Assembly (NCBI GenBank): GCA_964573395.1
Contig: CAZNJI010000005.1
Span: 7,759 to 71,758 of the forward strand
Length of the DNA: 64,000 nucleotides
Direction of reading: 5' to 3'
Source of the DNA: an uncultured Candidatus Saccharibacteria bacterium
GTDB lineage: Bacteria; Patescibacteriota; Minisyncoccia; Phycocordibacterales; UBA9973
Both the position numbers and the translations under genes were made by a program. Numbering within the stretch: the first letter of the stretch is position 1; every line of letters begins with the position of its first letter. Under the pieces are notes generated by a model. It was given only the letters and a program-made list of their open reading frames with translations, was not told the origin of the DNA and searched no databases. Positions 5,742 to 62,300 of the stretch are shown here, in pieces.

Positions 5742-5743
5742 AA

Positions 5744-8513: not shown

Positions 8514-8567
8514 ATATCTCGCCGTGAGACAAGCCCAGGCGGCGAGAGTAAATATGAAGAGAATAAA

Positions 8568-11261: not shown

Positions 11262-11270
11262 ATAAGTGTA

Positions 11271-12661: not shown

Positions 12662-12700
12662 AATTGAAAAAATGTTGAAATTATTGTAGAATTTGTCGCT

Positions 12701-13177
12701 ATGATACTCGAGAGTATACCATTTATCATCGGCCTCCTTGCGTTTATTGTTCTTGCAGTGGCTGCGCTCTTTATAGCGCACATCCGCCTTTCTCGAAAGC
12801 TCAAGCGGTTCATGCTCGGCAAAAGCGCTTCATCGCTCGAAGAAAGCCTTGAAAGTATCATTGAACGAAATAGCACGATCGAAAAAACGCTCTCGGCCCA
12901 TAAGGAAGCACTTGAAATTATTAATACGCGCCTCTCGGGCAGCATCCGCGGCACATCGCTTGTGCGCTATGATGCATTTCAAAACTCAGGCGGCGCGCAG
13001 AGTTTTGCGGCAGGATTCCTTGATGAGCACGGCAATGGATTTATTCTTTCAGTCGTAACGAATCGAAGCCACGTAGGCGTATACGCAAAACCGGTTGCCG
13101 GCTTTGTAGCAACGGTCGAACTAACGCCGGAAGAATCAGAAGCATTGATGAAAACTAAAGAACAGCAAAAAATATGA
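12701..13177 (+). CDS. Hypothetical membrane-anchored protein (possibly DUF4446-like)
   Basis: N-terminal TM plus a soluble domain. Its stop overlaps the infB start by 4 nt (ATGA). Confidence 0.45.
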   Translation: MILESIPFIIGLLAFIVLAVAALFIAHIRLSRKLKRFMLGKSASSLEESLESIIERNSTIEKTLSAHKEALEIINTRLSGSIRGTSLVRYDAFQNSGGAQSFAAGFLDEHGNGFILSVVTNRSHVGVYAKPVAGFVATVELTPEESEALMKTKEQQKI

Positions 13178-14661: not shown

Positions 14662-14666
14662 ATAAT

Positions 14667-14990
14667 ATGGAACAGAACCGGAAAGAAAAAATAGAAATGC
14701 ACCTGAAGGAAATTATTGCTACCTTTCTTGAGCGCGAATCAAACCGCACGAATCTACTGACGGTTACCCGCGTTCTGCTTGGCGACCGCGGCAAGCGTGC
14801 TCTAGTGTACCTCACTGTTCTTCCTGAAAGCGCAGAGGAAAGCGCCCTTTCGTTTGCAAAGCGAAAGCGCGCGGAGATGCGGGAATTTATCAAACCCTAT
14901 CTGAATACAAAAACAATTCCCTTTCTCGACGTTGCAATTGACACTGGCGAGAAAGCCCGACAAACTATAGATGCTCTGTTAAAAGAGTGA
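14667..14990 (+). CDS. rbfA: Ribosome-binding factor A
   Basis: About 107 aa, placed after infB as in the conserved operon. KH-like sequence VTRVLLGDRGKRALVYLTV. Confidence 0.75.
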   Translation: MEQNRKEKIEMHLKEIIATFLERESNRTNLLTVTRVLLGDRGKRALVYLTVLPESAEESALSFAKRKRAEMREFIKPYLNTKTIPFLDVAIDTGEKARQTIDALLKE

Positions 14991-14992
14991 TT

Positions 14993-15064
14993 GTCCTGGT
15001 GGCCAAGTGGTAAGGCGGAGCTCTGCAAAAGCTCTATACGCGAGTTCGATTCTCGCCCAGGACT
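14993..15064 (+). tRNA. tRNA-Cys(GCA)
   Basis: Acceptor gtcctgg/ccaggac, anticodon stem gagct/agctc with loop cuGCAaa, T-loop ttcgatt. Confidence 0.8.
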
Positions 15065-15143
15065 CCCTAAAACATTTGCTTCGCAAATGTTCGGGCGAAT
15101 AATTTGCCCGAGGCAAATTGTTTTAGCCACAACGTAATACATT

Positions 15144-15227
<84 letters not shown>

Positions 15228-15284
15228 CAAATAAAAAAAGAGTTTTGTGGTCAGGGATAAATACATAATTTGCAGGAATCTCAC

Positions 15285-15371
15285 AAGCTGGGAAACCCAC
15301 GGTTTTCCCAATCCTTCCTCCACGGGGAAACAGCAGTTTCCCCGACCCCCTTCTGGTTCGAATCCTGCTAG
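15285..15371 (+). repeat. tRNA-3'-end-associated two-hairpin module, copy B
   Basis: 15291-15319 is an exact inverted match to 8252-8280. Hairpin ggggaaac-agca-gtttcccc shows a compensatory G-C versus A-T change relative to copy A. It ends with ggttcgaatcctgctag, identical to the sense 3' end of tRNA-Lys on the other strand. Confidence 0.6.
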
Positions 15372-15424
15372 ACTAATCAATGTAACAAAAAATTCCTAGC
15401 AATAAGCTAAGAATTTTTTATTAT

Positions 15425-15498
15425 GTGCGCCTAGCAGGATTCGAACCTGCGACCGTTTGCTTAAGAGGCAACTGCTCTACCGACTGAGCTATAGGCGC
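15425..15498 (-). tRNA. tRNA-Lys(CUU)
   Basis: Minus-strand fold: gcgccta.. acceptor, anticodon loop cuCUUaa, T-arm gcagg-ttcgaat-cctgc. Confidence 0.8.
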
Positions 15499-15509
15499 TT
15501 ATAAAAATG

Positions 15510-15594
15510 TGCCGAGGAGAGGACTTGAACCTCCACAGGTGTAACCCTACCTGCTCCTAAGGCAGGCGCGTCTACCAATTTCGCCACCTCGGCA
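15510..15594 (-). tRNA. tRNA-Leu(UAG)
   Basis: Minus-strand fold: acceptor gccgagg, anticodon stem cctgc/gcagg with loop cuUAGga, long variable arm. Confidence 0.8.
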
Positions 15595-34611: not shown

Positions 34612-34976
34612 TCCCCTGTAGCTCAGCGGTAGAGCAGTCGCCTGTAACATGAACAATGTTCAAATAGCAGCTTCCCGATCGAAAGACGGGTCGAAAAACG
34701 AAGTGAATTGACTGGAAATCCTGATCACACAGGATAATCAGCAGCCAAGCCCAGCCGTGAATCCAATAAGTTATTGAACTCACAACTGGGAAGGTTCAGA
34801 GACTATCTCGAAAGAGAGTACTCTCAGCCGTATTTTGTTTATAAAAAAATACGGCTAGGCGGAAGCGCTTCGCACCTTCCCTTTTTATTAAGAATGGTGA
34901 TGATATAGTCCATACCCGCAGTAATGCGAGAATATATGTAAGCGATTGGTCGTAGGTTCGAATCCTACCGGGGGAG
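34612..34976 (+). tRNA. tRNA-Asn(GUU) interrupted in the anticodon loop (between positions 35/36) by a ~293-nt intron-like insert (34646-34938)
   Basis: 5' exon: tcccctg-ta-gctc-agcggta-gagc-a-gtcgc-cugu. 3' exon: uaa-gcgat-tggtc-gtagg-ttcgaat-cctac-cggggga-g. Acceptor 7/7 paired (with U6-G67), and the G73 discriminator is typical of tRNA-Asn. The insert ends in G and contains CAGCCAAG and AGACUA P7-like motifs. Confidence 0.55.
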
Positions 34977-36641
34977 CAAAGTCGAACAAACATCCCTGAA
35001 AATAGGATTTTGTTCCGAAACATCAATGATATTTTCAGGTTCGAACTGTATGTTCTTCTGTTTTGCCGCACTTAGTCCATCAATTAGAGTTTGAAACTCT
35101 TCTGCGTTGGTAATACTCATTTTTTCTTCATTCCAGATAAGGTTCGATTTAAACTTCTTCAAAACAACTCGTTTAGCCTTGGTATCATCTGAAGAAAGAA
35201 CATCCACGAAAGATTGTGTTAAATCAACAATTTCACGCATTCGTATTGACCAATCCTGTCTTTGTATTGATTGCGTTTTAAGCTCAGCAACTTCCCTATC
35301 AATTTTTTCAGCATCTTTTTTGTAATCATCGGGAGAAGTTACACCATCGTTTAAATACTGTCGTGCTCGGTCCTTGCGTGCAAGAAGCTGTTCAAGGTGA
35401 CTTTTTCTTCCTTGTTCAATCGTTACAATGTGCTCTACTTCTCTATCTTTCATTTCTTGAATATTTCTCCTGCACCAATCCGCTAAAGCTGGCGATAGTT
35501 GAAGATTTTCCTTAACGTAGCTGATTAAGTAGTCAGTAATACAAGATTCTTCAATATATCGAGCTTTGAGTTTTTTCTTTCTACGACTGACGTTGTAATA
35601 GTAATGGTATGAGAGGTATTTAGGGCTCTTAATTTCTGCAAGTGTTTTGTTGCATTTAGGGCAACAGTCCTTGTTCTGGTAGGAGAATTTATATTTGCAC
35701 TCGCAAATTAATTGAAGCTTTATATCTGGACCAATAAATTCACCGTAAGGAGATTTAATAAAACCACTATAAGGAGTTAAGTGCTCTTTTGTCTTTGGAA
35801 CACTTCTATCTCCAAGCATTCTGCGTACCTTGTAATGTTCTGCCTCGGTTATCATTCGAGGTAATTCTGGAGCAAGCTCATATCGTTCTCCTCCATAGTA
35901 AAAGAAGCCTGCAAAAATAGGGTCTTTCAAAATTTCATAAATACGTGAGTAAGTAATAAATTTCCCACCAATTCTTTTACTCTTCCGTGTTGTGAACTTA
36001 ACTTCATTTACTGCCCACTCATAGAGCTGTGTTCCGGAATAGCTTCCGGAAAGAAACATACTGAACATCTGTTTGATAATGTTAAACCGATCCTCATCTA
36101 CTAACCACTTCCTATTTCCCTTTTCTTCGCTTCGATCATTTTTAAACCCAAGAGCCGCAAGACCATGTGGGTATCCCATGCTAGCTTTCTTTGCCTGCCC
36201 TCGTTTTACGTTTACCGAAAGATCTCGACTAAACTGATTAGCTGAACCAAATTCAACTGACATAAGGAGTGCATTTTCGTTTGGAAGATATACTTTAGTA
36301 GGAGTAATAATTGCTTTGATGATTCCTTTTTGAAGTAAGTCTATTATGAGCCCTCCATCAACCATGTTTCGAGCAAGACGGTCCAATTTCCAGCAGATAA
36401 TTGCATTGATTTTTCCCTCATGTAGGTCTTTAATCATTCGCTTATAAATCTCACGCTCTCCGGCAAAATGTGCCGATTTTGCTTCTTCATACAATTCTGA
36501 CTTCACTATTTCCCAATATGAAATTAGACGCTCTGCCTCTTCCTTTTGGGCTGGAATTGAAAGGACCTGTTTTTCTTCAGATTCTTGCGATTTCCTACAA
36601 TAAATTCCTGGAATTAAATCTTTTATTTGGTTCCTGTCCAT
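34965..36641 (-). CDS. Large serine recombinase (site-specific integrase)
   Basis: Resolvase catalytic domain (IYCRKSQESEEKQ..S, KLDRLARN), a recombinase domain, and a Zn-ribbon CECKYK..CCPKC. The last 4 codons overlap the tRNA-Asn T-arm/acceptor. Confidence 0.9.
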   Translation of the reverse strand: MDRNQIKDLIPGIYCRKSQESEEKQVLSIPAQKEEAERLISYWEIVKSELYEEAKSAHFAGEREIYKRMIKDLHEGKINAIICWKLDRLARNMVDGGLIIDLLQKGIIKAIITPTKVYLPNENALLMSVEFGSANQFSRDLSVNVKRGQAKKASMGYPHGLAALGFKNDRSEEKGNRKWLVDEDRFNIIKQMFSMFLSGSYSGTQLYEWAVNEVKFTTRKSKRIGGKFITYSRIYEILKDPIFAGFFYYGGERYELAPELPRMITEAEHYKVRRMLGDRSVPKTKEHLTPYSGFIKSPYGEFIGPDIKLQLICECKYKFSYQNKDCCPKCNKTLAEIKSPKYLSYHYYYNVSRRKKKLKARYIEESCITDYLISYVKENLQLSPALADWCRRNIQEMKDREVEHIVTIEQGRKSHLEQLLARKDRARQYLNDGVTSPDDYKKDAEKIDREVAELKTQSIQRQDWSIRMREIVDLTQSFVDVLSSDDTKAKRVVLKKFKSNLIWNEEKMSITNAEEFQTLIDGLSAAKQKNIQFEPENIIDVSEQNPIFRDVCSTLLPR

Positions 36642-37009
36642 AATTGGTTATCTATATTATTTTAACTCATTTTTACGTAGCACCCGACCTTTCTGCCTAT
36701 AATGCATGGCATACCGATAATTTATGTAACAATCTAGGTATAAATACTGACGGCCTCTGCCCTAGAACTCCTGCATATGGTTCATTCTCTGAAGTTCCCT
36801 CTCTTAGGCATCATATTTATTGACCATATGAGGTGCTTATTAATGGGCTGGGTGCGGTGTAGGTCGTCGAAACGCATTATTCCCAGCTTTCACATAAACA
36901 CCCCATGTAGCCTTCATTTTCGTGTACATTGACCAATGTACCTTATTAAAGCGGTGTCTTTTTATCGCGAGTATTCACCAAAGTTCGCTGTGTAGATTGA
37001 ATTGTCGAA

Positions 37010-37225
37010 TCATTTTTTTTCCTGTTTAATAGACTCAACAAATAATGTAAGTAGAAAATCACCGATATTATTTATATCTGTATCAGATAGTTTTTGTGCG
37101 CCAGAATGACCTATTTCGTTTTGTAAGACAAAACGTAAATCATCAATCGCTTTTTGACTTAATCTTCTTATCTCTTCCACTGTTGTGTGCCTATTAAATA
37201 AACACAGAACAAAAAAGCCGAGCAC
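37010..37225 (-). CDS. Hypothetical small protein
   Basis: ORF followed by terminator 37211-37252 (aaaaaagccgagc..gctcggctttttt). Confidence 0.3.
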   Translation of the reverse strand: MLGFFVLCLFNRHTTVEEIRRLSQKAIDDLRFVLQNEIGHSGAQKLSDTDINNIGDFLLTLFVESIKQEKK

Positions 37226-37514
37226 CTAATATTAGGTTGTCTCGGCTTTTTTGTAAGGGAATACAACCTAGGTTAAATTAGGTTATATTCCCTTAGAGAA
37301 ATAAGGAAACGTTGCACTGTTCTATAACTCGAATCGCTGTTTCTTGATGGTCACATAAAGCGCCCTCACAAGTTGCTAGAATTTGACTTTAAAAGTTCTG
37401 TAGCAAAACACCCACCACAACTGTAAGGTATTGGAGTACATATTGTTGTGAGGGATGTTTTACTCTCCAATACCTAATTTTATTTTAGTAAATAAAAATC
37501 AAATTGTCTATAAG

Positions 37515-37530
37515 TTGATTTAGAAATCAA
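37515..37530. promoter_or_regulatory. Palindromic site TTGATTTAGAAATCAA (copy 1)
   Basis: Identical 16-mer with 7-bp inverted arms, repeated at 38304. Confidence 0.4.
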
Positions 37531-37544
37531 GAAATCAAGTTTAA

Positions 37545-37691
37545 TTAATCCTCAAAACCACCTAATAAAGCGATTATTATTCCCATAACAACAAGTGAAG
37601 CAATCGCTGTCCAGAAACCGCCCATTAATAATGCAATGATAAAAACAATTACGGCTAATATTCTCATGAATATATGAATAAAAAACTTCAT
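37545..37691 (-). CDS. Tiny hydrophobic protein (48 aa, below track cutoff)
   Basis: Manual translation: MKFFIHIFMRILAVIVFIIALLMGGFWTAIASLVVMGIIIALLGGFED. Confidence 0.3.
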   Translation of the reverse strand: MKFFIHIFMRILAVIVFIIALLMGGFWTAIASLVVMGIIIALLGGFED

Positions 37692-37693
37692 TT

Positions 37694-37924
37694 TTAATCT
37701 TTCTTAACCAAACTATATTCCTTCGGTTTCTTTCCAGTAATCTTATGAATTACTTTATTAGCGATAGTACATCCAATTACTACAGCAATGATTAAAGGTA
37801 TAAGTCCTTGAACAATAAGACCATTAACAATACCTATTACAATCAAAACAATAAATAACCCAACAATATAAGCAATGATTATTCTTCCTGTACTAGGCTT
37901 CTTAATATTTAACTCTTCATTCAT
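37694..37924 (-). CDS. Small membrane protein (2 TM)
   Basis: 76-aa ORF adjacent to the tiny hydrophobic ORF. Confidence 0.4.
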   Translation of the reverse strand: MNEELNIKKPSTGRIIIAYIVGLFIVLIVIGIVNGLIVQGLIPLIIAVVIGCTIANKVIHKITGKKPKEYSLVKKD

Positions 37925-38303
37925 AGTTTAATTTTTTGTTTAAAAACAATAAAACATTCTTTTAATAATTAAATGGGTTTTTGTATATAAAACGCAAAAA
38001 GCCCAACACGAAGGTGGTAGCTTGCGCTACCCATACCAGTTTCCCGGTATGACCAGTGACGGCAGACCCTTCGATGTTGGGTTCTTTGCACGTCACTGGT
38101 TTTTCTTCACCATGCCAGCCCTAGGGGCTGGTTTAGGCTACTTCGCTAAGTATTACACGAAAATATGAAGTTTTCTACAGATAGGTTTAAAAACCCAAAA
38201 ACCCAAGAAATCCATATTTTCTTAGGTAGATAAGAGTCCGGTTTTTAAACCGGAAAACCCGATATTTTGGTTTAAAAACCAAAAAAACAATAACCCTTAA
38301 AAA

Positions 38304-38319
38304 TTGATTTAGAAATCAA
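38304..38319. promoter_or_regulatory. Palindromic site TTGATTTAGAAATCAA (copy 2), 36 bp upstream of the 38356 operon
   Basis: Exact repeat of the 37515 site. Confidence 0.4.
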
Positions 38320-38355
38320 TTAATCAGAAATTGGCTTGTAAACACAAATATAGCT

Positions 38356-39273
38356 ATGATGCCAAATATGGAAAACTCTCCCACCCCTAAAACAATGTTT
38401 ACTGATACATTTCCTGATGATATTACGTCTGACGAAGAATTAGATGTTATAAAAGCTCAATATCCAGATTACGATGATTATTATGTGGCGAGTGGTTCCA
38501 TTAAGGAACGTAGAGAAAGTTTTGATGCAATGTATCAAATATACGCTCCTTATGCCGATAAACACTTTCTTTCCGATCTAAAAAAGCATTTCCATGAACG
38601 AACATGGGAAATGTATATTGGATATACCCTAATAAAAAATGGTGTCTCATTTACATCCACAAATAAAGGACCAGATATTCTTATTGAAACACCTGAAGGG
38701 AAAATATGGATTGAAGCTGTTGTTTGTAACAGTGGAGATGGCCCAGATCGTGTCCCAGCTATGATATATGGTGTAGCCTCAGATGTACCCGATGATGAAA
38801 TGATTATCAGAATGGCAAATAGCCTTGATGCCAAATTTAAAAAATATCAAAAATATATTAATGAAGATATTGTGTCAGTAGAAGATAAATTAATCATTGC
38901 TGTAAACGCCGGTATTTTTAGCCACGTAGTTGATGGAGATATGCCACTTATTCTAAAAGCAATTTTTGCTATCGGATTCCGAACATTATCATTACCAATC
39001 GACGGAAAAGGACCAGTAAAACCAGGGATCTCGACTAGAAATTTTATTGAAAAGAAAAATGGAAGCAAGGTTGCAACCACTTTCTTTTTAGAAAAAGAAC
39101 ATGCTTCAATTAGTGCTGTTTTATATACCAGTAGAACAGTGCTTAATCAAGATGAGCCAGCTGGGACTAATATAATGGTAGTTCGTAATCCAATAGCTAC
39201 TAATCCTCTCCCGGATGATGCGTTCCCATTTATGCATCAAATTATTACTAAAGGAGGCATTATAGAATTATGA
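38356..39273 (+). CDS. Hypothetical protein (possible PD-(D/E)xK-like nuclease), first gene of a 3-gene operon
   Basis: 305 aa with GPDILIETPEGKIWIEAVV resembling a D..ExK core. Its stop overlaps the next start (ATGA). Confidence 0.45.
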   Translation: MMPNMENSPTPKTMFTDTFPDDITSDEELDVIKAQYPDYDDYYVASGSIKERRESFDAMYQIYAPYADKHFLSDLKKHFHERTWEMYIGYTLIKNGVSFTSTNKGPDILIETPEGKIWIEAVVCNSGDGPDRVPAMIYGVASDVPDDEMIIRMANSLDAKFKKYQKYINEDIVSVEDKLIIAVNAGIFSHVVDGDMPLILKAIFAIGFRTLSLPIDGKGPVKPGISTRNFIEKKNGSKVATTFFLEKEHASISAVLYTSRTVLNQDEPAGTNIMVVRNPIATNPLPDDAFPFMHQIITKGGIIEL

Positions 39274-40268
39274 AAACCTGCATTTATTGTAGATCGCAGA
39301 ATCAATCTTTATTTAAAGGGGTTGAGCATCTTATACCCCAAAGTTTTGGTACTTTCAGCTCTGAGACTCCAACGTTAAAATGTGTTTGTGATGAGTGCAA
39401 TGCTTTCTTTGCAAAAGAACTCGACCAAATACTTGCTCGTGACAGCTGGGAAGGTGTAGAGAGATACAAAAAAGGAATTAAATCCAGAGAACAAAGACCT
39501 ATTAAGAGACTAAAATTTAGTCTCGAAAATACCCCAGAAATGGGCGAATTTGGCGGAATGGTTTTTGAAGGTGTTGATGCTACTACAGGAAAATTACTAC
39601 ATCCGAAAGGGCAATTTCATATAAAAAACATTAAAACTAAAAAATTTGATGTCTTCTTTACAGATGCAATAAAAAATATAAAACTTGATGATGAAACGTA
39701 TGGAGTAAAAGGCACGAGAGAAACAAAAATATTTGCAAATTCTGAAGAAGAACACCAAGCTGTTTTTGATGAAGTAAGAAAAATTATTCCGACTTATAAA
39801 ATAAAAGAAAAATTTCAACCTCCATTTATTCAAGGTAGAAAAGATGATGAAGTAATTGAACTTCCAATTTGGATTGAGGGAACTATTGATCATCCTATAA
39901 AAAGAGGATTAATAAAGATTCTTCTAAATTTTTCAGCTTACTATATTGGAAATGAAGAAGTTCTTAAGTCGGAATGGGATAAAGCAAGAGACTACGTTAG
40001 ACTTAATTCAGAACCAATCTTGGGTAAAGCTGATACTAAACCTTTCTGGGGAGATGAAACAGAAGTAATGCGTCTCCCAAATGATAGCTTTAATATTCTT
40101 GTTGAGAATAAAGGTAAAGATGTAATAGGAAAAATCCAAATATATAATTTTTATACCCACACCTTTATTCTCGCTGAGAATCACAGTATTCCTATAGGAA
40201 AAGAAAAAGCTATGCGCTTTACTAAAGGAAAACCTCCATACCGCGCAGAAAAAAGAACAGTGTTTTAA
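39270..40268 (+). CDS. HNH endonuclease-domain protein
   Basis: N-terminal CIYCRS..FKGVEHLIPQSFG HNH motif plus a second Cys pair CVCDEC. Confidence 0.65.
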   Translation: MKTCIYCRSQNQSLFKGVEHLIPQSFGTFSSETPTLKCVCDECNAFFAKELDQILARDSWEGVERYKKGIKSREQRPIKRLKFSLENTPEMGEFGGMVFEGVDATTGKLLHPKGQFHIKNIKTKKFDVFFTDAIKNIKLDDETYGVKGTRETKIFANSEEEHQAVFDEVRKIIPTYKIKEKFQPPFIQGRKDDEVIELPIWIEGTIDHPIKRGLIKILLNFSAYYIGNEEVLKSEWDKARDYVRLNSEPILGKADTKPFWGDETEVMRLPNDSFNILVENKGKDVIGKIQIYNFYTHTFILAENHSIPIGKEKAMRFTKGKPPYRAEKRTVF

Positions 40269-40302
40269 ATATTAATTAAAAACCACCTTTTTAGTTATTT
40301 TT

Positions 40303-40980
40303 ATGAAGCTACTAGAAATATTTAATACTCGGGAATTAGCGACAATAGTATGGGTCATTATTTTATTTGTATATCTTATCCGAAAACCAGAAATTCGCTC
40401 TAGTTTACTGCGATTTTTAAAAAGTGTTTTTAAATTATGGAAAATAGTGCTTAGCATGATTATCTACATCATTTTCTGTATTTTTATTTTGCACAAAATG
40501 TCGTTCTGGAATATGGATTTACTTAAATTAACAATTTTTTGGTTTTTTGGTTGGGCTTCTGTAATGTTTATAAACCTCAACGATATACAAAAAAATAAAA
40601 GTTACCTCAAAAAAGTACTAGTTAATATTTTAGGGTTAACAGTTGTTATTTCATTTATCACAAATTTCTATACATTTCCCTTTATAGCTGAACTGATCCT
40701 TTTACCAATCATTACGATCCTTTTAGTATTCACAGTTATGCCTCAAATTAAAGGCAACCTAAAAGTAAATAGACTCATAAACCAAGTACTAATTGTTTTT
40801 GGACTTATTGTATTAGCTATTAATATAAAGAGAGTAATATGTAATTTCCAAACTTTCTCCTCTATGAACACTCTACTAGAATTTCTTCTACCAATAATCC
40901 TATCCTTAATGTTTTTACCGTATCTTTATTTACTATTCCTTTATTCAGAATGTGAACAAAAGAAAATAAAGGGTAAATAA
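40303..40980 (+). CDS. Polytopic membrane protein (about 6 TM), probably co-transcribed with the HNH gene
   Basis: Hydrophobic throughout; 34-nt gap from the upstream gene. Confidence 0.5.
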   Translation: MKLLEIFNTRELATIVWVIILFVYLIRKPEIRSSLLRFLKSVFKLWKIVLSMIIYIIFCIFILHKMSFWNMDLLKLTIFWFFGWASVMFINLNDIQKNKSYLKKVLVNILGLTVVISFITNFYTFPFIAELILLPIITILLVFTVMPQIKGNLKVNRLINQVLIVFGLIVLAINIKRVICNFQTFSSMNTLLEFLLPIILSLMFLPYLYLLFLYSECEQKKIKGK

Positions 40981-41039
40981 TATTCCGAAGATCTGTACAT
41001 AAGGCGGAGTTCTTCTGGTAATTTGTTACAATCTAACCT

Positions 41040-41801
41040 ATGCCAACAGAGGCTCATTTTACGCTATACCTCGATGAAACTGGGGATCATCTTCTTTACT
41101 CAGAGGAAGAATACCTTCAAAATTCAGAACTAGAAAGTCATTGTACTCTCTTAGGCTACATCCTTCAAAATGACGTTAAGCCTATTGTAAAAGAAGGACT
41201 CAAAGCCTTGAAAAGAGAATTTTGGAAGACGGATGAAGTTATATTACATAGTGTAAAGATACGTCATAAACAAGGATGCTTCGCTTTGTTTCATTACATA
41301 CCTGAAATGTATGAGAAATTTAAGGTTCGATTAATGGAGATTATTAAACTATCTAACCCCGTGATTGTATGTAGTTCACTAGACAAGCGATTATGGATTA
41401 AAAAATATCCAAGGAAATACTACTTTAAAGACGATCCTTATGATCAGGCATTTATTTTTCTTCTGGAAAAATATGCGCGTTTTCTTAACGATCAGAAATA
41501 CGACAAAGTGGTTGGTCGAATATCTGTTGAAAAAAGAGATCCCGCCAGAGACAAATCGCTAAGAGAGACATATACGAGCGTAAAGAGAAATGGTACTCAA
41601 TTTCGCAATAAAAACTTTTTCGATAAACTCTCGGATAAAATGGATTTTGACAGTAAAGGATTCAATATTCCCGGTTTGCAATTGAGTGACTATTGTTCAT
41701 ATCCTTTTTATATAAACCATAAATTTCCTACTCGAGATAATAAATTATATGAACTACTTAAGACATATATTTATAACTGTGGACATAAAAAATGGCCCTA
41801 A
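41040..41801 (+). CDS. DUF3800-like protein
   Basis: N-terminal LYLDETGD resembles the DUF3800 signature (hydrophobic-YIDESG); 253 aa. Confidence 0.5.
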   Translation: MPTEAHFTLYLDETGDHLLYSEEEYLQNSELESHCTLLGYILQNDVKPIVKEGLKALKREFWKTDEVILHSVKIRHKQGCFALFHYIPEMYEKFKVRLMEIIKLSNPVIVCSSLDKRLWIKKYPRKYYFKDDPYDQAFIFLLEKYARFLNDQKYDKVVGRISVEKRDPARDKSLRETYTSVKRNGTQFRNKNFFDKLSDKMDFDSKGFNIPGLQLSDYCSYPFYINHKFPTRDNKLYELLKTYIYNCGHKKWP

Positions 41802-41944
41802 AAAACACAAAAGAGCTCGTATTGAGCTCTTTTGTGACCCCTCATTCGAAGGGAAAATATCACTGAATGATACCTTTTAATTATATATTAAAGAACAATC
41901 TTGTATACATAGTTATTAACAGTCCATCAACGTTCGGAACAAAC

Positions 41945-42451
41945 TCAATGGATAGAAATAAAACCATCATCATAATGCTCTTTAAATTTAATTAAGTTAG
42001 TGTCATCAAGTTTGTTTTGAGAAATATACAATTTTGCCGCCTCGATTATGTCTTTACAAAATGTATGAATATTGATTATCATTTTTCGTGGCTGTATAAC
42101 TCCTTTATTATAATTACCTCCCAAATAACCGAAATGAGATGAACTTTTTTCCGTTAAAACCACAAATTTATCAAAAACGTCCTTAAAATACTTCTCATCT
42201 TGAGTTGTTACATCGTCAGTTCCCTGGTGTAGAGCAGCACATCGAAAAGCCCAACAAATTTTCCCGGGAATGCCTCTACTTGCATATGTAGGCATATTTT
42301 CGTTAAACCATTGTATATATTTCTCTCCTAAACCCCTCTTTCCTTCTTTTATTGAAACGCATATATCTGGAATTGTTAAGGCAATAAATAATGCTCCGAA
42401 GAAGGCTTTATTTTCTAAACATATCTCAATTGAATCACCCAATTCATTCAT
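41945..42451 (-). CDS. Hypothetical protein (downstream gene of a 2-gene operon)
   Basis: 168-aa ORF, 3 nt after the upstream gene. Confidence 0.4.
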   Translation of the reverse strand: MNELGDSIEICLENKAFFGALFIALTIPDICVSIKEGKRGLGEKYIQWFNENMPTYASRGIPGKICWAFRCAALHQGTDDVTTQDEKYFKDVFDKFVVLTEKSSSHFGYLGGNYNKGVIQPRKMIINIHTFCKDIIEAAKLYISQNKLDDTNLIKFKEHYDDGFISIH

Positions 42452-42454
42452 AAA

Positions 42455-42817
42455 CTAAGATTTAACTATCTTCTTTTTTATTGAATCAACAAATAGGCGG
42501 AATGCAGGACGGTTCTCTTTATCGTAAATAATCTTTACTCCCAGTAAGTGGCCTTTATCACAAGAGAGATCTTTTTTTGAGATAGAAACTTTTGGCTCAA
42601 TAATCCTATCATGGTACATACGGCGAAGATTGCCTGGACCATCTTTTTGATAGTGGCAAATGTGAGCTCCGCATTTCTCGCATGAGATAGCGAGCAGCCG
42701 GGAGTACCCGCCTCTTACCTTCTTATATCGATCATTCTTGAAGCTATTCTTTTTCACGTCGTGAGTATAGCATTCCGAACATCCTCCAACGTTCGGAGCC
42801 ATCAAAAAACAGCTCAA
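42455..42817 (-). CDS. Hypothetical Zn-ribbon protein
   Basis: CSEC..CEKCGAHICH Cys/His cluster; 120 aa. Confidence 0.4.
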   Translation of the reverse strand: MSCFLMAPNVGGCSECYTHDVKKNSFKNDRYKKVRGGYSRLLAISCEKCGAHICHYQKDGPGNLRRMYHDRIIEPKVSISKKDLSCDKGHLLGVKIIYDKENRPAFRLFVDSIKKKIVKS

Positions 42818-42871
42818 ATACAGGGCTGTTTTTTGTTGCCCCAGTAGGGTTCAGAACTCAAATTTGTTACT

Positions 42872-43582
42872 ATGATAGTAATGAAAAAGTTTATTATTTA
42901 CACACTACTGTCAGTATGTCTTCTCATAGTATGCGGATATGGTTTGCTTCAAGTTAGCAAATCCCGCACCTTTCAATTCTTTGGTAGCATTGTAAGTCGG
43001 GTTGATACTGAAGAAAAAGTAATTGCCCTTACATTTGATGATGGACCAGAAAGTTATACCAATGAGATATTGAGTGTGCTTAAAAAGAAACAAGTAAAAG
43101 CTACGTTTTATGTAATTGGTGAGAGATTGCAAGAAAACTTAGAGATTGGAAAACGTATTACAGACGAAGGCCACGAATTAGGTAATCACTCGTATACTCA
43201 TCAGCGATTTTTATTCAAATCACAATCCTTTATTGATAGCGAGATACAAAGAACTAATCAACTTATTCGTGAGACAGGATATGGAGGAGCTATCACGTTT
43301 CGCCCGCCATATGGGAAAAAACTATTCGGGCTTCCGTGGTATCTAAATAAACACAACATTGAAACCATTATGGTTGATGTTGAACCCGATACCTATGGAA
43401 CAACATCCGACTTTTTTGTTGAATATACAGTTGCTAATACAAAAGCGGGTTCTATTATTTTGCTTCATCCATTCTGTGAGACCTGCATCGAACAAAGAAA
43501 AGCTGTTCCACTCATAATAGATGCACTAAAGGAAAAGGGTTATACCTTTGTTACTGTTTCTGAGCTACTTTCTAAAAGATAA
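42872..43582 (+). CDS. Polysaccharide deacetylase (NodB-homology domain)
   Basis: TFDDGPESYT.., ATFYVIG.., GHELGNHSYTH motifs; N-terminal TM. Confidence 0.8.
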   Translation: MIVMKKFIIYTLLSVCLLIVCGYGLLQVSKSRTFQFFGSIVSRVDTEEKVIALTFDDGPESYTNEILSVLKKKQVKATFYVIGERLQENLEIGKRITDEGHELGNHSYTHQRFLFKSQSFIDSEIQRTNQLIRETGYGGAITFRPPYGKKLFGLPWYLNKHNIETIMVDVEPDTYGTTSDFFVEYTVANTKAGSIILLHPFCETCIEQRKAVPLIIDALKEKGYTFVTVSELLSKR

Positions 43583-43595
43583 GTTTAGAGAAATC

Positions 43596-43702
43596 AGTTC
43601 TGAAGTTTTGCCTCAGGAAATATCTCAAAAATCTTAGAAAACTCAATATCTCTTTTGATTGCAGTCCAGTTGAGAGTTCTGAACTCGTCCACTAGAGGGA
43701 GC
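43596..43702 (+). repeat. Conserved ~107-bp intergenic repeat R1 (cassette-boundary-like)
   Basis: tAGTTCTGAAGt ..ctcaaaaatcttagaaaactc.. gAGTTCTGAACtcgtccac-agagggagc. Four copies lie in the island. Confidence 0.7.
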
Positions 43703-43708
43703 AAATAT

Positions 43709-43736
43709 TTGACTTATTTATATTTTATGCTATTAT
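43709..43736 (+). promoter_or_regulatory. Sigma70-like promoter after R1 (TTGACT-16-TATTAT)
   Basis: Seen in sequence; conserved with the promoter after R3. Confidence 0.55.
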
Positions 43737-43885
43737 AAAAATAATAGTGTTCTTTGTTGTTTTTATAGGTTCATAGCTAAAAGTTACTTAAAACTTTAGG
43801 TATTTTTTAGCTATGACCACGGTGGTCTAGTTCCCGCTTACGGACAGTAAGCAAAAACGGGCTATCAGCCTATAAATAAATCAAT

Positions 43886-44521
43886 ATGAAATACAACGAG
43901 TTTAACCTCGGTCAGATTGAAGCTGTCTTCAACAAGCTTGGAGGAGTATACGGTGTAAAACGTTTTCTCTCTGGTCAAACGGAAGTAAGAGCAATTCCTA
44001 AAAGCTTTCTCTGGTGGAAAAAAGTTACTATAGGAAAATTTAATTCTATAGGAGAAGTGTGGCGGGCGCTTACTGAAAAAGGTGTGGAATTAAAAGAAGG
44101 TATTCCATATGGCTCCAAAAAATGTGCCCTACGACATCGCTCGGTAACTATGTTAAACAGCCCATTGTTTACCCTAGCCAAGGTAGAAGAAGAAATCGAA
44201 CTTGTATCAGTAAAATTAAAAGATTTAGGTTTCGTAGATAGTGGTTTTGTACCAAAAAAGGAAGTTCTTAAATGGGCTTCACAAATTGGATTAGAACCCT
44301 GTCCTGCAGAAGTAGTAATTGACCTGCTTTTAAATCACCAACTCGAAGAAACAAGAAGAAAAGATGTTCAAATTGTGATGGAACCTATACGTGTCGCAGA
44401 TGACCATCTGAACTTCAGGTTAAGAGAAGATGGTGGGTGTGGGGCGTTACTTTTAGATTGGGATGTTTCTGATAAATTTTCCGACTTTGAGTGTTACGTA
44501 TTTCGTTTAGTAAACAAATAA
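43886..44521 (+). CDS. Hypothetical protein (cassette gene)
   Basis: 211-aa ORF followed by terminator hairpin cctcacgca..tgtgagg-tttttt (44531-44562). Confidence 0.5.
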   Translation: MKYNEFNLGQIEAVFNKLGGVYGVKRFLSGQTEVRAIPKSFLWWKKVTIGKFNSIGEVWRALTEKGVELKEGIPYGSKKCALRHRSVTMLNSPLFTLAKVEEEIELVSVKLKDLGFVDSGFVPKKEVLKWASQIGLEPCPAEVVIDLLLNHQLEETRRKDVQIVMEPIRVADDHLNFRLREDGGCGALLLDWDVSDKFSDFECYVFRLVNK

Positions 44522-44562
44522 CAAAACAAGACCTCACGCAATAACTATGTGTGAGGTTTTTT

Positions 44563-44669
44563 AGTTCTGAAGTATCATCAAAGGAAATACCTCAAAAATC
44601 TTAGAAACTTCTAAATCTCTTTTAATTGCAACCCAGTTAAGAGTTCTGAACTCGTCCACGAGAGGGAGC
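44563..44669 (+). repeat. Intergenic repeat R2
   Basis: Same architecture as R1. Confidence 0.7.
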
Positions 44670-44783
44670 CATTTTTTGAAGCTTATTTCGTAACAGTTAA
44701 TTTTGATACCCAAATAGGGTTCAGAACTTTACATAAGAAAAGCCCGCCATTACTGACGAGCTTTTTTTGTTTTTAATCGTTGA

Positions 44784-45140
44784 TTACTTGGTTTGCAACT
44801 TCCACACTTTTGATGTTTCCATTACATTACCTTTCCTTGTGCGTGTATTGTAATAAAATGCACGCTTCTCGGATTTACCCTCATCAACTGAGTTAGGTAA
44901 TCCTTGAATAAGGAACTCTCCAATCCAACTTTCACCTGAACCATCTTCAGGACCTGCGAGATGCACGGTAGCATTAAACTTTTTCCCAATATCCATTGTG
45001 CTTTTTATAGCGCTGGTGTTAATGGAGAACTGGATTGTCTTTTTATCAAAAAGACTGGCTTGTAGGTCATACTTCGATGGACCATTTGTGATTGCACATA
45101 ATCCTTCAGGAAGTAGTGCTGTTTTGGATGTGATTACCAT
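44784..45140 (-). CDS. Hypothetical protein (cassette gene)
   Basis: 118-aa ORF. Confidence 0.4.
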   Translation of the reverse strand: MVITSKTALLPEGLCAITNGPSKYDLQASLFDKKTIQFSINTSAIKSTMDIGKKFNATVHLAGPEDGSGESWIGEFLIQGLPNSVDEGKSEKRAFYYNTRTRKGNVMETSKVWKLQTK

Positions 45141-45263
45141 AACGATAATTGTTTATTTTGAAGAACAGTGAGGTTACGACCCTCGATTACGTTGCTGAAT
45201 AACTCAGTCTTGTTTACATTGTAGCATACTACAAGATAAATGTCAATATATAGCCAATTTACT

Positions 45264-45370
45264 AGTTCTGAAGTGCCATCATCGGAAACATCTCAAAAAT
45301 CTTAGAAAACTCCAATTCCCTTTTGATAGCAACCCAGTTAAGGGTTCTGAACTCGTCCACTAAAGGGAGC
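45264..45370 (+). repeat. Intergenic repeat R3
   Basis: Same architecture as R1. Followed by a TTGACT-17-TATTAT promoter at 45377-45405. Confidence 0.7.
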
Positions 45371-45526
45371 TAATACTTGACTTTTCTATATTTTTATGCT
45401 ATTATATATTTGTAATAGTACTTTGAGATACTTGGTTATTTAATGTTGATTTTGTTGGGTTTTCTGTGTTCCCTGCTTGGGATTATAGACAACTCAATAA
45501 TTTCTAACAATTAAATAAACAAAAAA

Positions 45527-46000
45527 ATGAACAGTTATCAAAAAAGTGAAAGGGTTACAAAAATCCTTTCTATATTTTCAATTGTGTCGTTTGTTATCGC
45601 CATTATTTCGTTTGTAATTTATGCCTTCGTTGGACGAAAAACATTCGACACTATCGCCGTGACTGGTTTAACAGCGTTCATGCTGCCCATTCTGGTGCTG
45701 CAAGTCGCCATGCCAGCAAACTTCCACATCTTTGGAACAAAAGGTATAGGGATCCCCTGGTCGCTATTTTTCTTCCTGTTTATATTCCCGTTCGCTGACC
45801 TGTGGTTCTTCTCTGGGTTAAGCACTTTATTCAACATTATTCCTGATTATCACTCTGTGATGAACGGATCAATGAAAGAACTGGTGCGTAATCAAGCCAT
45901 GACAGAAGCATGGACATACATCGGGAGTATATATGTGGGACTAATTAGTATCGGCCTGCTGTTAAGAAAAAAACAAAAAGAAAAAATTGTTCTGGGATAA
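45527..46000 (+). CDS. Hypothetical membrane protein (cassette gene)
   Basis: 157 aa with 4 predicted TM. Terminator at 46021-46051. Confidence 0.45.
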   Translation: MNSYQKSERVTKILSIFSIVSFVIAIISFVIYAFVGRKTFDTIAVTGLTAFMLPILVLQVAMPANFHIFGTKGIGIPWSLFFFLFIFPFADLWFFSGLSTLFNIIPDYHSVMNGSMKELVRNQAMTEAWTYIGSIYVGLISIGLLLRKKQKEKIVLG

Positions 46001-46054
46001 CAAACAACCCGCCAACACGGAAACCCGTTCGTTGAGCGGGTTTTCTTTTTGTTT

Positions 46055-46161
46055 AGTTCTGAAGTACTACCACTGGCAACAACTCAAAAATCTTTGAAAA
46101 CTCCAAATCTCTTTTGATGGCAGTCCAATTCAGAGTTCTGAACTTGTCCAAGAGAGGGAGC
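46055..46161 (+). repeat. Intergenic repeat R4
   Basis: Same architecture as R1. Confidence 0.7.
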
Positions 46162-46549
46162 AAAGTAAAAAAGACCTTTTCAGGTCTTAGGTTGATACCC
46201 GCTCCATTTAGTTTTACTTCTTGCATTTAGCACGATGACGCGGACAAGAAAACTGCTTGGAACTAAAAAAACTTCGCGAACAGTTAAAAGTCCCTCTATT
46301 TTATAATAGTCGGAGCGACTGCCTCAACTAAAAACAAACTTTTGCTTTAACTATAGGAGAGTTTGAACCTATAGCATCCCCAAGGATTAACTTTGCTTGG
46401 AGAACCACAAATTTTTAAGCGGATACCGTTCTTGGTATGTATTCTCTCTTCTTCATTATACTAGCACGTTCCCCCCCCCGCCGAATGGCAGGATAAACTC
46501 CAATGTTCAGAGCTCCTAAAAATCTTAAACCAGCAACACTGCGTTGGCC

Positions 46550-59338: not shown

Positions 59339-62300
59339 ACTGTTGGTTCCGGTGTAGATTTCTGTACTGGTTCCTCTACCGGTGCCGGGTCAGGAGTTGA
59401 TTCAGGAACGGTTGGTTCTGGGGTTGGCGTAGTTTCTGCTGGTGGTGGAGCCGGCTCAGGTGTTGGTGATGGTTGCGGCTTTGATTCTTCTATAGGAGTA
59501 ACCTCAGGTGTAGTTTCAGGTTCAGGTTGAGGTTGAGGAACTACCGGATCTTCTGCCGGTGCTGGATCAGGAGTTGGTTCTGGTGTAGTTGCTTCAGGAG
59601 CAGCAGGTTCTGGCGTTGGTGTTGGTTCTACTGGTGGCGGAGTTGGTTCAGGCGATGCTGATGGCTCTGGTTGTACTGCTTCTGGAGGAGCAATGTCTAA
59701 CCCTTCAAAGACGCTTTCGTACACAGCCGGGTCTTTACTTGCAAGCGCGGTCCATGAGAAGCGGATATCACGCACTGCAGGCTTATTCAAGAGAATCGTA
59801 AATCCTGTCTTGCTCTTATCAACAATTAAGAACTGGATTCCGGCATTAAAGAACGCTTCGGCTTCTGCATCGGTCATGTCATCAGCTGATTCGAATGAGA
59901 TGGAAGCATTCGTTGCCGGTTCAACCATGTACTCGTTCTCAAAGTCGATTCTGACGCGACGATCACCTTCTTTAATAAGTGCAAATCCGGCAGTGTCTTT
60001 ATTAAAGAGCGGAGGCAATGCGAACTCTACTGCCCCGCCAAAGGTAACAGCTTCATTGAAGACGGTTGCTCCACTGAAGAAGCTTAATCCGTTAAAGTCG
60101 GCCTGGCCGTTGAAGGCGCTCTCTCCTGAAACAGTTAATTTGCCTGCCGTAAGTTCAGCTATCGTAAAGGTTTCGTTCTCTCCAAAGAAGCTTTCAATAA
60201 GTGCGAGTCTTCCTGCGAGCCCTTCTTGAGCAGTCGCAAGTTCCGTAAGGTATGCCGCTCCGTCTACGCCGGCTTCCTGCAGCGCGCTAATTTGAGATGC
60301 AAGCGCATGTACCGCTGAAGCGGTCAGCGCAAGCGATTCCTGCCCTTCGCCAAGCACTGCCAAGCGGTTCGTAATGGTTTCAAGGCCGGTGATTTTACCT
60401 GCTTCAATTTCAGTTGCAGTAATCTTGCCAGCGAACGTTCCGTTGCCAAGCGCGTCGAAGGTAATAATCGGTTCAACCGTGGTACTCGTGGTGCCGTCCT
60501 CGGCGGTTATGGTAACTTCTTTGCCTATCGTAAATGGACTACCATCGGTAAGCACCAATCCTATTCCATCTTCTCCGGCAGGCCGTATCGTATTTACTTC
60601 GAGCGTATCGGTAATTACCTGCGGCGTAATGATTTCAAGCCCAGCAACAAGTCGGTCGGTAATAATTTCAGACATGTTTACTTCCGCTTCGTTTCCGTAA
60701 AGCTCTTTCTGGTTCACAAAATACTCCAATGCAGTTTTGCTAAGGTTTTGCTCGGTAAGCAATGCAGAGTCAGTTCCCGGAGGAGGGAGCAAGTCTTTTA
60801 AGTTTGTACCGTTATAGCTACCAGTTTTTACAAACATCAATACCGAGCCAACATCTTCACCGTCGTAAGAATCAAGCGCAACACCAATTACCGTGCTAGC
60901 TTTAGTCGCCTTCATTGCCACCCCAGGAATTGAAGAGCTGGTGAGTGCATCGCCAACATTAATTGCACCGTTTTCCGTACTTACCTTAACTGGTACGCGC
61001 CCAGAGAGAGCAACCATAACCGGCGTACCACCATCTGGTTGGATATCACCTATTACCAACCCCGGCTTGGTGGTAACAACGCCAAGCAAATTTTTGCCAT
61101 ACGCACCTTCTGATGCTTTTACTCCAGCAGAAAGTTGACTATCGGTCATTACTACTGTTCCCGGCGAGAGAGTGCCACCTTTGGCATAGTACACTTCGGC
61201 CAAATCGGCTCCAGAAACTTTATATGCTGTAACATAGCTTCCGGCATATACAGTTGTTGTACCACTTGTTGCAACCTGCCCTACCTGCAGTTGAACATCA
61301 CCAGCAGTACCGGCTGTTACTATTGTTCCTGTTACCCATATCGAATCAGTCGTAGTTGTTGCTATGGCCAAATTTCCTGAAGTTGTTCCACAAGCAACAT
61401 TTGCTACGGAAAGAGCTTCCTCCATGATATTAAAACTGATATCACAAGTAGAGCCTGTAGGGGCATCTATATCTCCTTTAAAATCTGCCGTTGAGTTTGA
61501 TGAAAACTGCAAGTTCATCTGGAATATCCATGTTTCGTTTGCCCCAACCGGAAAGCCCATATTGTCGGTTGTATCAGAATTATTATCAACATCCTCAGGT
61601 GTCGTAGAAGTAGTTGTAAAGTTTCCGTCGAGTACATTATGAAATGTTGCCCGATCCGATCCGCACTCCCATACTGAACCTGATTCATCCCACTTCAATA
61701 CTTGGCCGTCAGCACAGCCCTGCAACAGCCCAATACCGCCTGTGCCTGCTTCCATTCCCGATGCGCTAGAAGTTGCCCCCGACCCATCACTGCTGGTAAG
61801 ATCAACCGTCCAAACTGAACCAGATGAAGCAACGGTAACATCGCCCTTATCGCCATCGCTTACCCCACCACCACCGCCACAGGCCTGCCATTCCAAAAGC
61901 GCACCGCCACCGGTTTCTGAAGTTAAACAGTATTCATCAGTAGCCGTTCCCTGCGTGGTAAGGTCGCCCCGTTCAATGCCTGCATCAAGCACACTAAACT
62001 CGCTAGTTGAAATAAGCGTTCCGTTCACGTTGAACAAATTGGTAAACGTTCCGCCGGCATCGATGAACTGGATGGCGTTCGTAACCGCAGTATTCGTGTC
62101 TGAGTTATCAATCACCAAAAGCGATTCAGTTGTTCCGGATGATGCTGCGTTGTCGATATAGATGCCGTATTGGTTGCCCGACGACGTTGCATTCGTAAGT
62201 GTTAGTGTTGCCAATTCTTCAGCCGTGCTTCCTGTAAGAGAAAGCGTGCTATTAAGTGCCGCTTCGGTAAAGTTAATGTCATGCTCGTCGGCATCAACCA

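Follow-up and report, generated by a model that had tools for sequence, protein, structure and literature searches.

The window analysed here is a stretch of 64,000 nucleotides from an uncultured Candidatus Saccharibacteria bacterium (GCA_964573395.1, contig CAZNJI010000005.1), and this text concerns the DNA that follows its tRNA-Asn(GUU) gene, between positions 34,612 and 46,549. Directly beyond the 3' end of the tRNA lies E1, a unit of 7,822 bp (34978-42799) that carries the gene of a large serine recombinase (LSR) and has its attR at the far end. E1 is followed by four recombinase-less cassettes, A to D, of 0.7-1.0 kb each. The region is quite probably a tandem stack of these five units, inserted successively at the tRNA-Asn 3' end by LSRs. 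Bacteria of the candidate phyla radiation (CPR, or Patescibacteria) account for much of bacterial diversity and have tiny genomes, and their gene gain is little understood; the locus would represent a concrete, family-wide route of such gain, in which one recombinase family and one tRNA target give rise to stacked elements and cassettes. The GC content was found to be 0.351 across 34978-46161 and 0.481 on each flank, and the tetranucleotide distance of 4-kb island windows from the rest of the window corresponds to z = 5.6-10.2. An earlier note, made from the letters of the window alone, had described a single AT-rich island of about 11.5 kb. The AT-rich stretch is real and passed the k-mer comparison that the note had proposed, and both the horizontal acquisition of DNA at tRNA-Asn and the content of small hypothetical, membrane and nuclease genes were borne out; the single island, however, gave way to E1 and the four cassettes in tandem.

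No tRNA is called at this place when ARAGORN is run on the window, because a group I intron splits the gene. The 5' exon (34612..34645, plus strand) was read directly, and the intron (34646..34938, plus strand; 293 nt; Rfam RF00028, 86.7 bits, E 3.5e-21) interrupts the anticodon loop after U35, with the 5' exon ending in U and the intron in G. The 3' exon (34939..34977, plus strand) contains the T-loop TTCGAA (34956-34961) and the sequence GGAGC (34973-34977), and constitutes the B arm of attL. Joining 34612-34645 to 34939-34977 in silico yields a canonical 73-nt tRNA-Asn(gtt), as called by ARAGORN. The intron belongs to the host tRNA and not to the island.

The recombinase gene (34965..36641, minus strand) encodes 558 aa with Pfam matches to Resolvase (1.2e-16) and Recombinase (6.4e-07). 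It ends 12 nt inside tRNA-Asn with its stop codon at 34965-34967, and the tRNA encodes the last four codons and the stop (..TLLPR*), a geometry that had already been noticed and that proved to be a hallmark of the whole recombinase family. The family shows four invariant Cys residues (C314, C316, C328 and C331, in the numbering of the homologue P0033) and the catalytic-region invariants R16 and S18. In the AlphaFold2 (AF2) model of P0033, the body has a pLDDT (predicted local distance difference test) of 80-93, and long helices occupy residues 385-483 after the Cys cluster. The protein thus has the domain set of an LSR, namely an N-terminal catalytic domain of the resolvase type, a recombinase domain, and a zinc ribbon into which a coiled coil is inserted.

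What marks the borders of the units? Every junction has the form (tRNA or P arm)-GGAGC-(variable), and the sequences to the right of the core are unrelated. The core GGAGC comprises the last acceptor-stem bases, the discriminator and C74 of the tRNA, and is common to the tRNA end, all five P arms of the window and about 40 P arms elsewhere, with immediate divergence on both sides. Such a short common core without a long target duplication is as expected of an LSR. The P arms fall into two classes, class 2 of about 30 bp (TTCGAACATCNTCCCAAGTTNGGAGC) and class 1 of 107 bp. The attR of E1 is a class-2 arm (TCCGAACATCCTCCAACGTTCGGAGC; 42754..42799, minus strand) that encodes the displaced recombinase tail LRTLEDVRNAILTT*; it has three mismatches to the family consensus and is unique in the window, the next best match having seven. 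The four class-1 arms are direct repeats of 107 nt (c1, 43596-43702; c2, 44563-44669; c3, 45264-45370; c4, 46055-46161; nhmmer E 1e-32 to 1e-34), and no further copy was found by nhmmer in the 64 kb. The earlier note had seen no att site at the right edge and had set the boundary at about 46520 from composition; the class-2 arm and the four repeats, all ending in GGAGC, supply the missing sites, and the last intact junction is 46161, the end of c4. The motif GTTCAGAGCTC at 46505, taken as the boundary motif, has 23 matches at no more than two mismatches against 15.1 expected, which is not significant, and the "taagcg" at 46428 is irrelevant.

The repeat family was first exposed by alignment of the window with the relative L003 (loci of other genomes are given here as L numbers, recombinase homologues as P numbers). 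A pattern scan of public metagenome contigs yielded 32 further class-1 loci, many of them with two or three direct copies 0.6-1.8 kb apart. The repeats lie downstream of tRNA-Asn and in the same orientation in all five of the metagenome loci that contain tRNA-Asn, and in one contig of 232 kb both pattern matches fall within its tRNA-Asn array. When 29 full copies, drawn from the window, from GTDB relatives and from the 32 metagenome loci, were aligned, conservation was observed to begin at a stop codon of the minus strand and to end exactly at GGGAGC, with unrelated flanks that consist of promoters, terminator hairpins or recombinase genes. Ten class-2 arms showed the same sharp junction behaviour. 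A palindrome, GAGTTCTGAAC, recurs inside the class-1 repeats, and no Rfam family covers them. The possibility that the repeats are degenerate, displaced tRNA 3' ends was rejected, since the copies resemble one another far more than they resemble the tRNA, and since they are coding.

The coding nature of the P arms links them to the recombinase. On the recombinase strand, the class-1 repeat is an open frame, LPLVD[EK]FRTLNW..IKR[DE]LEFSKIFE.FP...LQN*, whose stop forms the outer edge of the conserved block. This frame is open in 25 of the 29 copies, has the lowest ratio of nonsynonymous to synonymous substitution (dN/dS = 0.49) among the six frames and shows entropies of 0.71/0.54/0.83 at the three codon positions; the peptide is the C-terminus of the LSR homologues P0033, P0045 and P0062. 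The class-2 tail, L[RQ]TW[DE]DVR..*, was found by a translation scan; it is encoded by the block of about 30 bp and ends P0029, P0073, P0100 and others. When the LSR of the window is joined to its block, the product reads ..VCSTL-LRTLEDVRNAILTT and matches homologues such as P0029 (..VCPTLLRTWDDVRKAIIDSS). A search with the reconstructed tail-bearing C-terminus returned only nine small ORFs. The recombinase open reading frames (ORFs) of L002 and L115 read through a class-1 repeat, and a second LSR clade, only 24% identical (L002, P0124, P0127), enters the class-1 tail in the same frame. Thus, in two LSR clades the reading frame runs across the core into the P arm, which would place attP within the ORF of the recombinase itself.

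The same picture emerges across the family, which comprises 397 homologues at E<1e-10, named Paceibacteria, Parcubacteria, Nomurabacteria and similar. Among the best 120 of the 397, the protein stops one or two codons past the core in 75, carries a class-2 tail in 15 and a class-1 tail in six, and reads on as ..[GD]SN[LQ]RP.. (the T arm in reverse) in ten, the other 14 being different or truncated; at least 85 of these 120 sit on a tRNA. The recombinases of L119 and L120 overlap tRNA-Asn by 13 nt, and that of L117 does likewise on an intron-bearing tRNA-Asn. A class-2 block on the recombinase strand lies at comparable distances from the tRNA-side core in sister elements, at 6.5 kb in L115, 7.0 kb in L116, 8 kb in L117 and 9.6 kb in L119, and behind the 8-kb arm of L117 three more class-2 copies or cassettes follow. 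The window holds one recombinase unit and four recombinase-less ones, and L117 one and three. In L002 and L115 the order is reversed, with cassettes between the tRNA and the recombinase (five repeats on the tRNA side in L115) and the recombinase ORF reading into a class-1 arm, which fits later insertions.

The geometry of the arms agrees with that of LSR attachment sites. The end of TTCGAA is separated from GGAGC by 10 nt in the tRNA, compared with 15 nt in the class-2 arms, and in class 1 a related TTCTGAA ends 14 nt before GGAGC. Rutherford et al. (2013, PMC3783163) located the distal motif bound by the zinc ribbon domain (ZD) of LSRs at positions 16-24 of the attP half-site, and found it shifted by 5 bp towards the centre in attB. 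Counted from the AG of GGAGC, the motif occupies about 16-24/25 in the P arms and 11-19 in the B arm, and an inverted TTCAG stands at 21-25 on the P' side of E1. Judged by these spacings, the shift of the T-loop motif fits the attP/attB geometry of LSRs. Two further invariant sequences were noticed farther from the core. AGTTCTGAA forms positions 1-10 of each 107-nt repeat, about 100 bp from the core, and AGTTCGAACCT (FEP codons; 35036-35046 in the window, Q/K-F-E-P) lies about 65 bp from the core inside the recombinase gene. The latter is the reverse complement of the tRNA T-arm sequence, and six recombinases of only 45-57% identity agree in it even at all wobble positions. Both look like sites conserved at the DNA level, and are perhaps accessory binding sites.

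Cassette A (42800..43702, plus strand) contains a polysaccharide deacetylase gene (42872-43582; Pfam 3.8e-34) followed by c1; gene and repeat recur in L100 (82% at the aa level), where similarity stops at the c1 core. Cassette B (43703..44669, plus strand) is composed of a promoter (43709-43736), a 211-aa ORF (43886-44521), a terminator (44528-44560) and c2. In cassette C (44670..45370), a 118-aa ORF (44784-45140) lies on the minus strand and is preceded by its own promoter (45246-45218); the unit ends with c3. This cassette was found again between two repeats in L111, where the body is 92.6% and its own repeat c3 86% identical, whereas the preceding repeat is 73% and the surroundings 40-54% identical (40% beyond the core), and the right-hand neighbour is different. 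Cassette D (45371..46161, plus strand) begins with a promoter (TTGACT-N17-TATTAT, 45377-45405) and a leader of about 120 nt, continues with a 157-aa membrane ORF (45527-46000) and a terminator (46019-46045), and ends with c4; homologues of its gene precede repeats in L097 and L108. The cassettes have sigma-70-like promoters of their own, situated directly after the preceding core. The promoter and leader of cassette D share 85% identity with the sequence immediately behind tRNA-Asn in L003 and L002: the promoter-plus-leader which follows c3 (45371-45526), and also c1 (43703-43885), in the window follows the tRNA itself in L003 (3957-4110, minus strand) and L002 (about 1630-1790, minus strand), with different genes behind. 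Across genomes, this strong promoter and its leader of about 120-130 nt keep an identity of about 85%, with different genes downstream, and the block has no Rfam match at E<=1. From this pattern, the leader may be an undescribed cis-regulatory one.

One insertion can be followed by direct comparison, between species and for a single cassette. The sequence that adjoins tRNA-Asn on its downstream side in L006 (AGTTAGGGTTGTCGGCTAATTCTAGTACC..) is found in L003 behind the first repeat, so that L003 possesses an additional cassette whose insertion point coincides with the core. The locus L005 was considered as an empty site and rejected, as a class-2 P arm lies about 850 bp downstream of its tRNA-Asn (8731); this apparent empty site has also been visited. 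Two short fragments resembling the tRNA-Asn 3' end, CCCCGGAGCA and CCTACCCGGGAGCC, are present in L005 at 9380-9560 (minus strand). A terminator-type flank was likewise tried as the mark of the ancestral end of an array, and was weakened by the L005 arm and by the terminator-type left end of cassette A.

How would such a stack form? In the free circular form, attP would lie within the 3' end of the recombinase gene, and the enzyme would be full-length with a tail of 14-36 aa. Crossover in GGAGC would join the gene body to the tRNA, so that the protein would then end in ..LLPR*, two codons on, with its stop in the T stem, and the tail-coding P arm would stay at the far end as attR. The tRNA is whole and unduplicated because the crossover is at its extreme 3' end, where only bases after C74 change, and for the same reason no direct repeat of the tRNA was visible to the earlier note. 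Each newcomer would enter at the tRNA and push older units outwards, which would make E1 the newest unit and the four class-1 cassettes older. The recombinase-less cassettes, each with its own promoter or terminator, one gene and a P arm, may, with less certainty, have been moved by a recombinase acting in trans. This scheme predicts an E1 attP in which CAACGTTCGGAGC is joined to AAAGTCGAACAAAC, a site after E1 loss in which CCGGGGGAGC is joined to CATCAAAAAACAGC, single-cassette circles such as the c3 end GGGAGC joined to CATTTTTTGAAGC, and a fully empty site in which GGGGGAGC is joined to AAAGTAAAAAAGACC.

Several points weigh against the successive insertion of five units by LSRs. The comparison with related genomes that the earlier note had called for gave the extra cassette of L003 relative to L006, and no same-species genome without the insertion was found for E1. 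The predicted empty site is absent from the metagenome contigs searched, and the predicted attP from the viral contigs of IMG/VR; the mobility and activity of E1 therefore remain predictions. Contig ends in Logan at 34948 and 42546 were tried as signs of excision and rejected, since contigs of sister loci stop at the same spot of the tRNA and ends inside the tRNA or a repeat are due to branching of the assembly graph at shared sequence. The search for att sites, also proposed beforehand, produced the GGAGC core, the shifted T-loop motif and the inverted TTCAG on the P' side, with the crossover placed to within the 5 bp of GGAGC. The P'/B' half-sites on the right vary widely, ranging over promoters, terminators and coding sequence, which is unusual for an LSR, as such an enzyme binds all four half-sites. 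The class-1 arms are far longer than a half-site of 25 bp, and the invariant motif at their outer end, AGTTCTGAA, falls outside the model's account. Finally, the signal of purifying selection on the class-1 tail is moderate at its dN/dS of 0.49, and AF2 confidence in the tail is low (pLDDT 50-69), the tail offering no functional hint.

The strongest alternative, which we nevertheless regard as doubtful, is that full-size elements arrived successively and later lost their recombinase and most of their cargo, so that the small units would be the remains of such losses, not independently mobile cassettes, and the repeats would be residual gene ends. The origin of the P arms as 3' ends of recombinase genes accords with this, as do the degenerate or partial copies that exist (L003b; partial matches in L115, L096 and L105), and tycheposon islands have been explained in the same way (10.1101/2020.12.28.424599). 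However, random deletion would not yield units that start exactly at a core, and no recombinase fragments lie between the repeats in most arrays. One conserved P' type, the AATACTTGAC.. promoter and leader, recurs after tRNAs and repeats in many genomes, and cassette C, at 92.6% identity, has its breakpoints at both cores in two genomes with different neighbours.

It is very unlikely that the region is a single 11.5-kb island from one integration, with a right edge near 46.5 kb defined only by composition and with incidental internal repeats. The uniformly low GC over 35-46 kb and the presence of only one recombinase gene would suit such an island, but the cognate class-2 arm already closes E1 at 42754-42799, sister elements have their far ends at a similar 6.5-9.6 kb, four more junctions with the same core follow, and cassettes A, C and D are found separately in other genomes. 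Even less probable is a prophage or phage satellite that uses a serine integrase for lysogeny. LSRs are classic phage integrases, and the sister loci L120/L121 contain a GP3_package-like gene and a gene for a 1578-aa protein. E1, however, is only 7.8 kb long, a PHROGs scan gave just three matches, each to a family without an assigned function, and revealed neither structural nor packaging genes, and the repeat pattern and the recombinase family, like the predicted attP, have no match in IMG/VR. That the repeats are ordinary host intergenic sequences in a fast-evolving part of the chromosome (REP-like, i.e., repetitive extragenic palindromic, or MITE-like, i.e., miniature inverted-repeat transposable elements, structured RNAs or terminators) unrelated to the recombinase is scarcely credible: they do lie between genes and beside terminators, contain a palindrome and belong to no Rfam family, but they occur only downstream of tRNA-Asn, always as direct copies and nowhere else in the 64 kb or the 232-kb contig, end at the tRNA-type core, start their conserved block at a stop codon and fuse in frame with two divergent recombinase clades.

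With stacking at the tRNA thus the preferred reading, the other contents of E1 can be considered. Just upstream of the LSR gene lies a conserved gene for a 56-aa protein with a GTG start (37010..37180, minus strand). Each of the six recombinase-bearing elements examined has a homologue of 52-58 aa in this position (34-47% identity, E as low as 2e-12), and the protein has no match to a Pfam family; it is a candidate directionality factor or regulator. A LOOT RNA (Rfam RF03000; 38016..38139, minus strand) scores 84 bits against a gathering score of 46.4. LOOT RNAs were observed 0.5-2 kb upstream of the recombinase in five of the six elements, namely the window, L115 (8136-8255 and 672-798), L117 (9326-9457), L119 (8033-8159) and L120 (8035-8155), and the second copy of L115 adjoins a second serine recombinase. 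The RNA is on the same strand as the recombinase in the window and on the opposite strand in the other elements. This orphan RNA is thereby linked to a mobile element.

The cargo of E1 includes a gene pair on the plus strand (38356..40268) for a 305-aa protein resembling PD-T7-5/PD-T7-1 and a 332-aa HNH nuclease (PADLOC 4.9e-15 and 1.6e-14; Pfam HNH_5 3.7e-07), which forms a putative anti-phage defence module. Further cargo (40303..42757) consists of genes for a 225-aa membrane protein (plus strand), a DUF3800 protein (plus strand), a 168-aa protein (minus strand) and a protein of about 100 aa (minus strand). The probable true start of the last ORF (42455-42757) is a GTG at 42757, and its product is 75% identical to that of a gene located elsewhere in L005. 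The stop TGA of the displaced tail overlaps this GTG (42754-42757); the circular form would therefore couple the gene translationally to the recombinase across attP. Units of the family often carry anti-phage genes, PD-T7-like here and Shedu, OLD/TOPRIM and AbiE in sister elements. The sister cargo includes Shedu SduA_C, an OLD-like TOPRIM/AAA ATPase, AbiEi/AbiEii, SLFN_AlbA_2, an MrcB_N/NucS-like nuclease and a KAP NTPase, with defence genes at 2124-7311 in L115, 3767-5127 in L117, 3414-7560 in L119 and 137-2227 in L116. Judging from these annotations, the tRNA-Asn stacks appear to act as defence islands in CPR genomes.

An anticodon-loop group I intron is also present in the tRNA-Asn(GUU) of L002 (about 1860-2375, minus strand), where it contains an HNH-type ORF, and of L117 (11705-12016, minus strand), and it is missing from the tRNA-Asn of L003, L005, L006, L007, L119 and L120. 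Within CPR, the group I intron of this tRNA is thus polymorphic, being present in some genomes and absent from others. On the left of the locus, the flanking pyruvate kinase has its best matches in metagenome-assembled genomes of Saccharibacteria and Paceibacteria (51-67% identity), which keep the order HisRS, 164-aa ORF, formyltransferase, 130-aa ORF, pyruvate kinase, tRNA-Asn. Exact-protein look-ups of the flanking pyruvate kinase and sigma factor returned no record, and that of the flanking DUF5667 protein returned one Logan contig of 1.6 kb that runs into repeat c4. The right flank (46162..46549) is non-coding over the 388 bp up to the DUF5667 stop and has a GC content of 0.407. It holds a hairpin (46171-46188) and, at about 46354-46405, fragments reminiscent of a disrupted class-2 arm, possibly a decayed P arm, and nhmmer gave no significant repeat match within it; the stretch is either ancestral or a very old remnant. 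Elsewhere in the window, the tetranucleotide profile of 60001-64000 deviates (z = 3.5), with a strong swing of GC skew at the right end, and eight tRNA genes (Leu x4, Trp, Tyr, Cys, Lys) form two clusters at 5570-15593, beside which no element was noticed in this pass.

A farther-reaching proposal, which is speculative and in our estimate improbable, holds that tRNA-Asn serves CPR as a gene-capture platform. LSRs would move both their own elements and free single-gene cassettes, and the exchange of the tail would act as a sensor of the free or integrated state that helps to set the direction of recombination, possibly together with the 56-aa protein and the LOOT RNA. If true, CPR would possess the equivalent of an integron that is run by a serine recombinase and encodes its own switch of directionality, and the LOOT RNA would gain a biological home. 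On the practical side, the att sites can be read from sequence. For a compact LSR family aimed at a universally conserved tRNA end, this should supply natural attP/attB pairs by the hundred, which is of relevance to the discovery of genome-engineering tools. No paper on this LSR family, on CPR tRNA-Asn islands or on the function of LOOT RNA was found in the searchable literature.

How does the system relate to known ones? Integrons, prophages and tycheposons each have defining features that it lacks; its logic is closest to that of staphylococcal cassette chromosome (SCC) elements and is also close to tRNA-seeded accretion in Prochlorococcus. The canonical attP of phage LSRs is about 50 bp long and lies outside the int ORF. 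With the phage enzymes (A118/LI, Bxb1, phiC31) the family shares the domain set, the short core without long direct repeats and a ZD-type motif shifted by 5 bp between attP and attB (PMC3783163). It differs in that the P arm is coding, the class-1 arm reaches 107 bp and bears a second invariant motif, and an invariant AGTTCGAACCT lies in the gene. Integrons rely on the tyrosine recombinase IntI, on folded single-stranded attC hairpins and on promoterless cassettes that are driven by Pc. The likeness here is an array of small, mostly single-gene cassettes beside one primary site, each ending in a family-specific site, whereas the recombinase is a serine enzyme, cassettes have their own promoters, the arms are double-stranded and of LSR type, and the conservation of the repeats is of a coding and not a hairpin kind.

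Apart from the present case, only tyrosine integrases of archaea have been described as having attP within the recombinase gene (PMC8371274). These "suicidal" integrases of the SSV type (Sulfolobus spindle-shaped virus), known only in Archaea, have their gene split into two large, inactive parts upon integration (PMC8371274). They resemble the present system in the attachment site in their own gene, the tRNA target and a product that differs between the free and integrated states (PMC8371274). The enzyme described here, by contrast, is a bacterial serine recombinase that would lose only a tail of 14-36 aa and keep all recognised domains, which makes it a testable case for directionality control at the protein level. 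Of the tycheposons described, 474 of 501 carry a tyrosine recombinase, and partial tRNA copies are left behind (10.1101/2020.12.28.424599). Repeated tRNA-proximal integration, the outward displacement of older material, att repeats between elements or remnants and streamlined hosts are common to both systems (10.1101/2020.12.28.424599). Unlike tycheposons, the present stack has an LSR and no tyrosine recombinase, leaves the tRNA unduplicated and has repeats that are tail-coding P arms.

In the staphylococcal and enterococcal cassette chromosome elements (SCCmec and composite SCC islands), LSRs of the Ccr type insert at the 3' end of the conserved housekeeping gene rlmH (orfX), and the elements pile up in tandem, with recombinase-less units that are bounded by the same att core being able to travel with the stack. 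SCC cargo includes anti-phage defence genes (PMC11470126, PMC6222049). The tRNA-Asn stacks likewise combine LSRs, a single conserved gene used as target at its 3' end, tandem composites with recombinase-less units, and defence cargo. They differ in that the target is tRNA-Asn instead of rlmH, the hosts are CPR bacteria and a single recombinase is present that is probably only distantly related to Ccr (CcrA, CcrB and CcrC). Moreover, attP here overlaps the 3' coding end of the recombinase gene, so that integration alters the protein, the P arms are long, coding and recognisable, and the recombinase comes with a LOOT RNA and a conserved protein of 56 aa.

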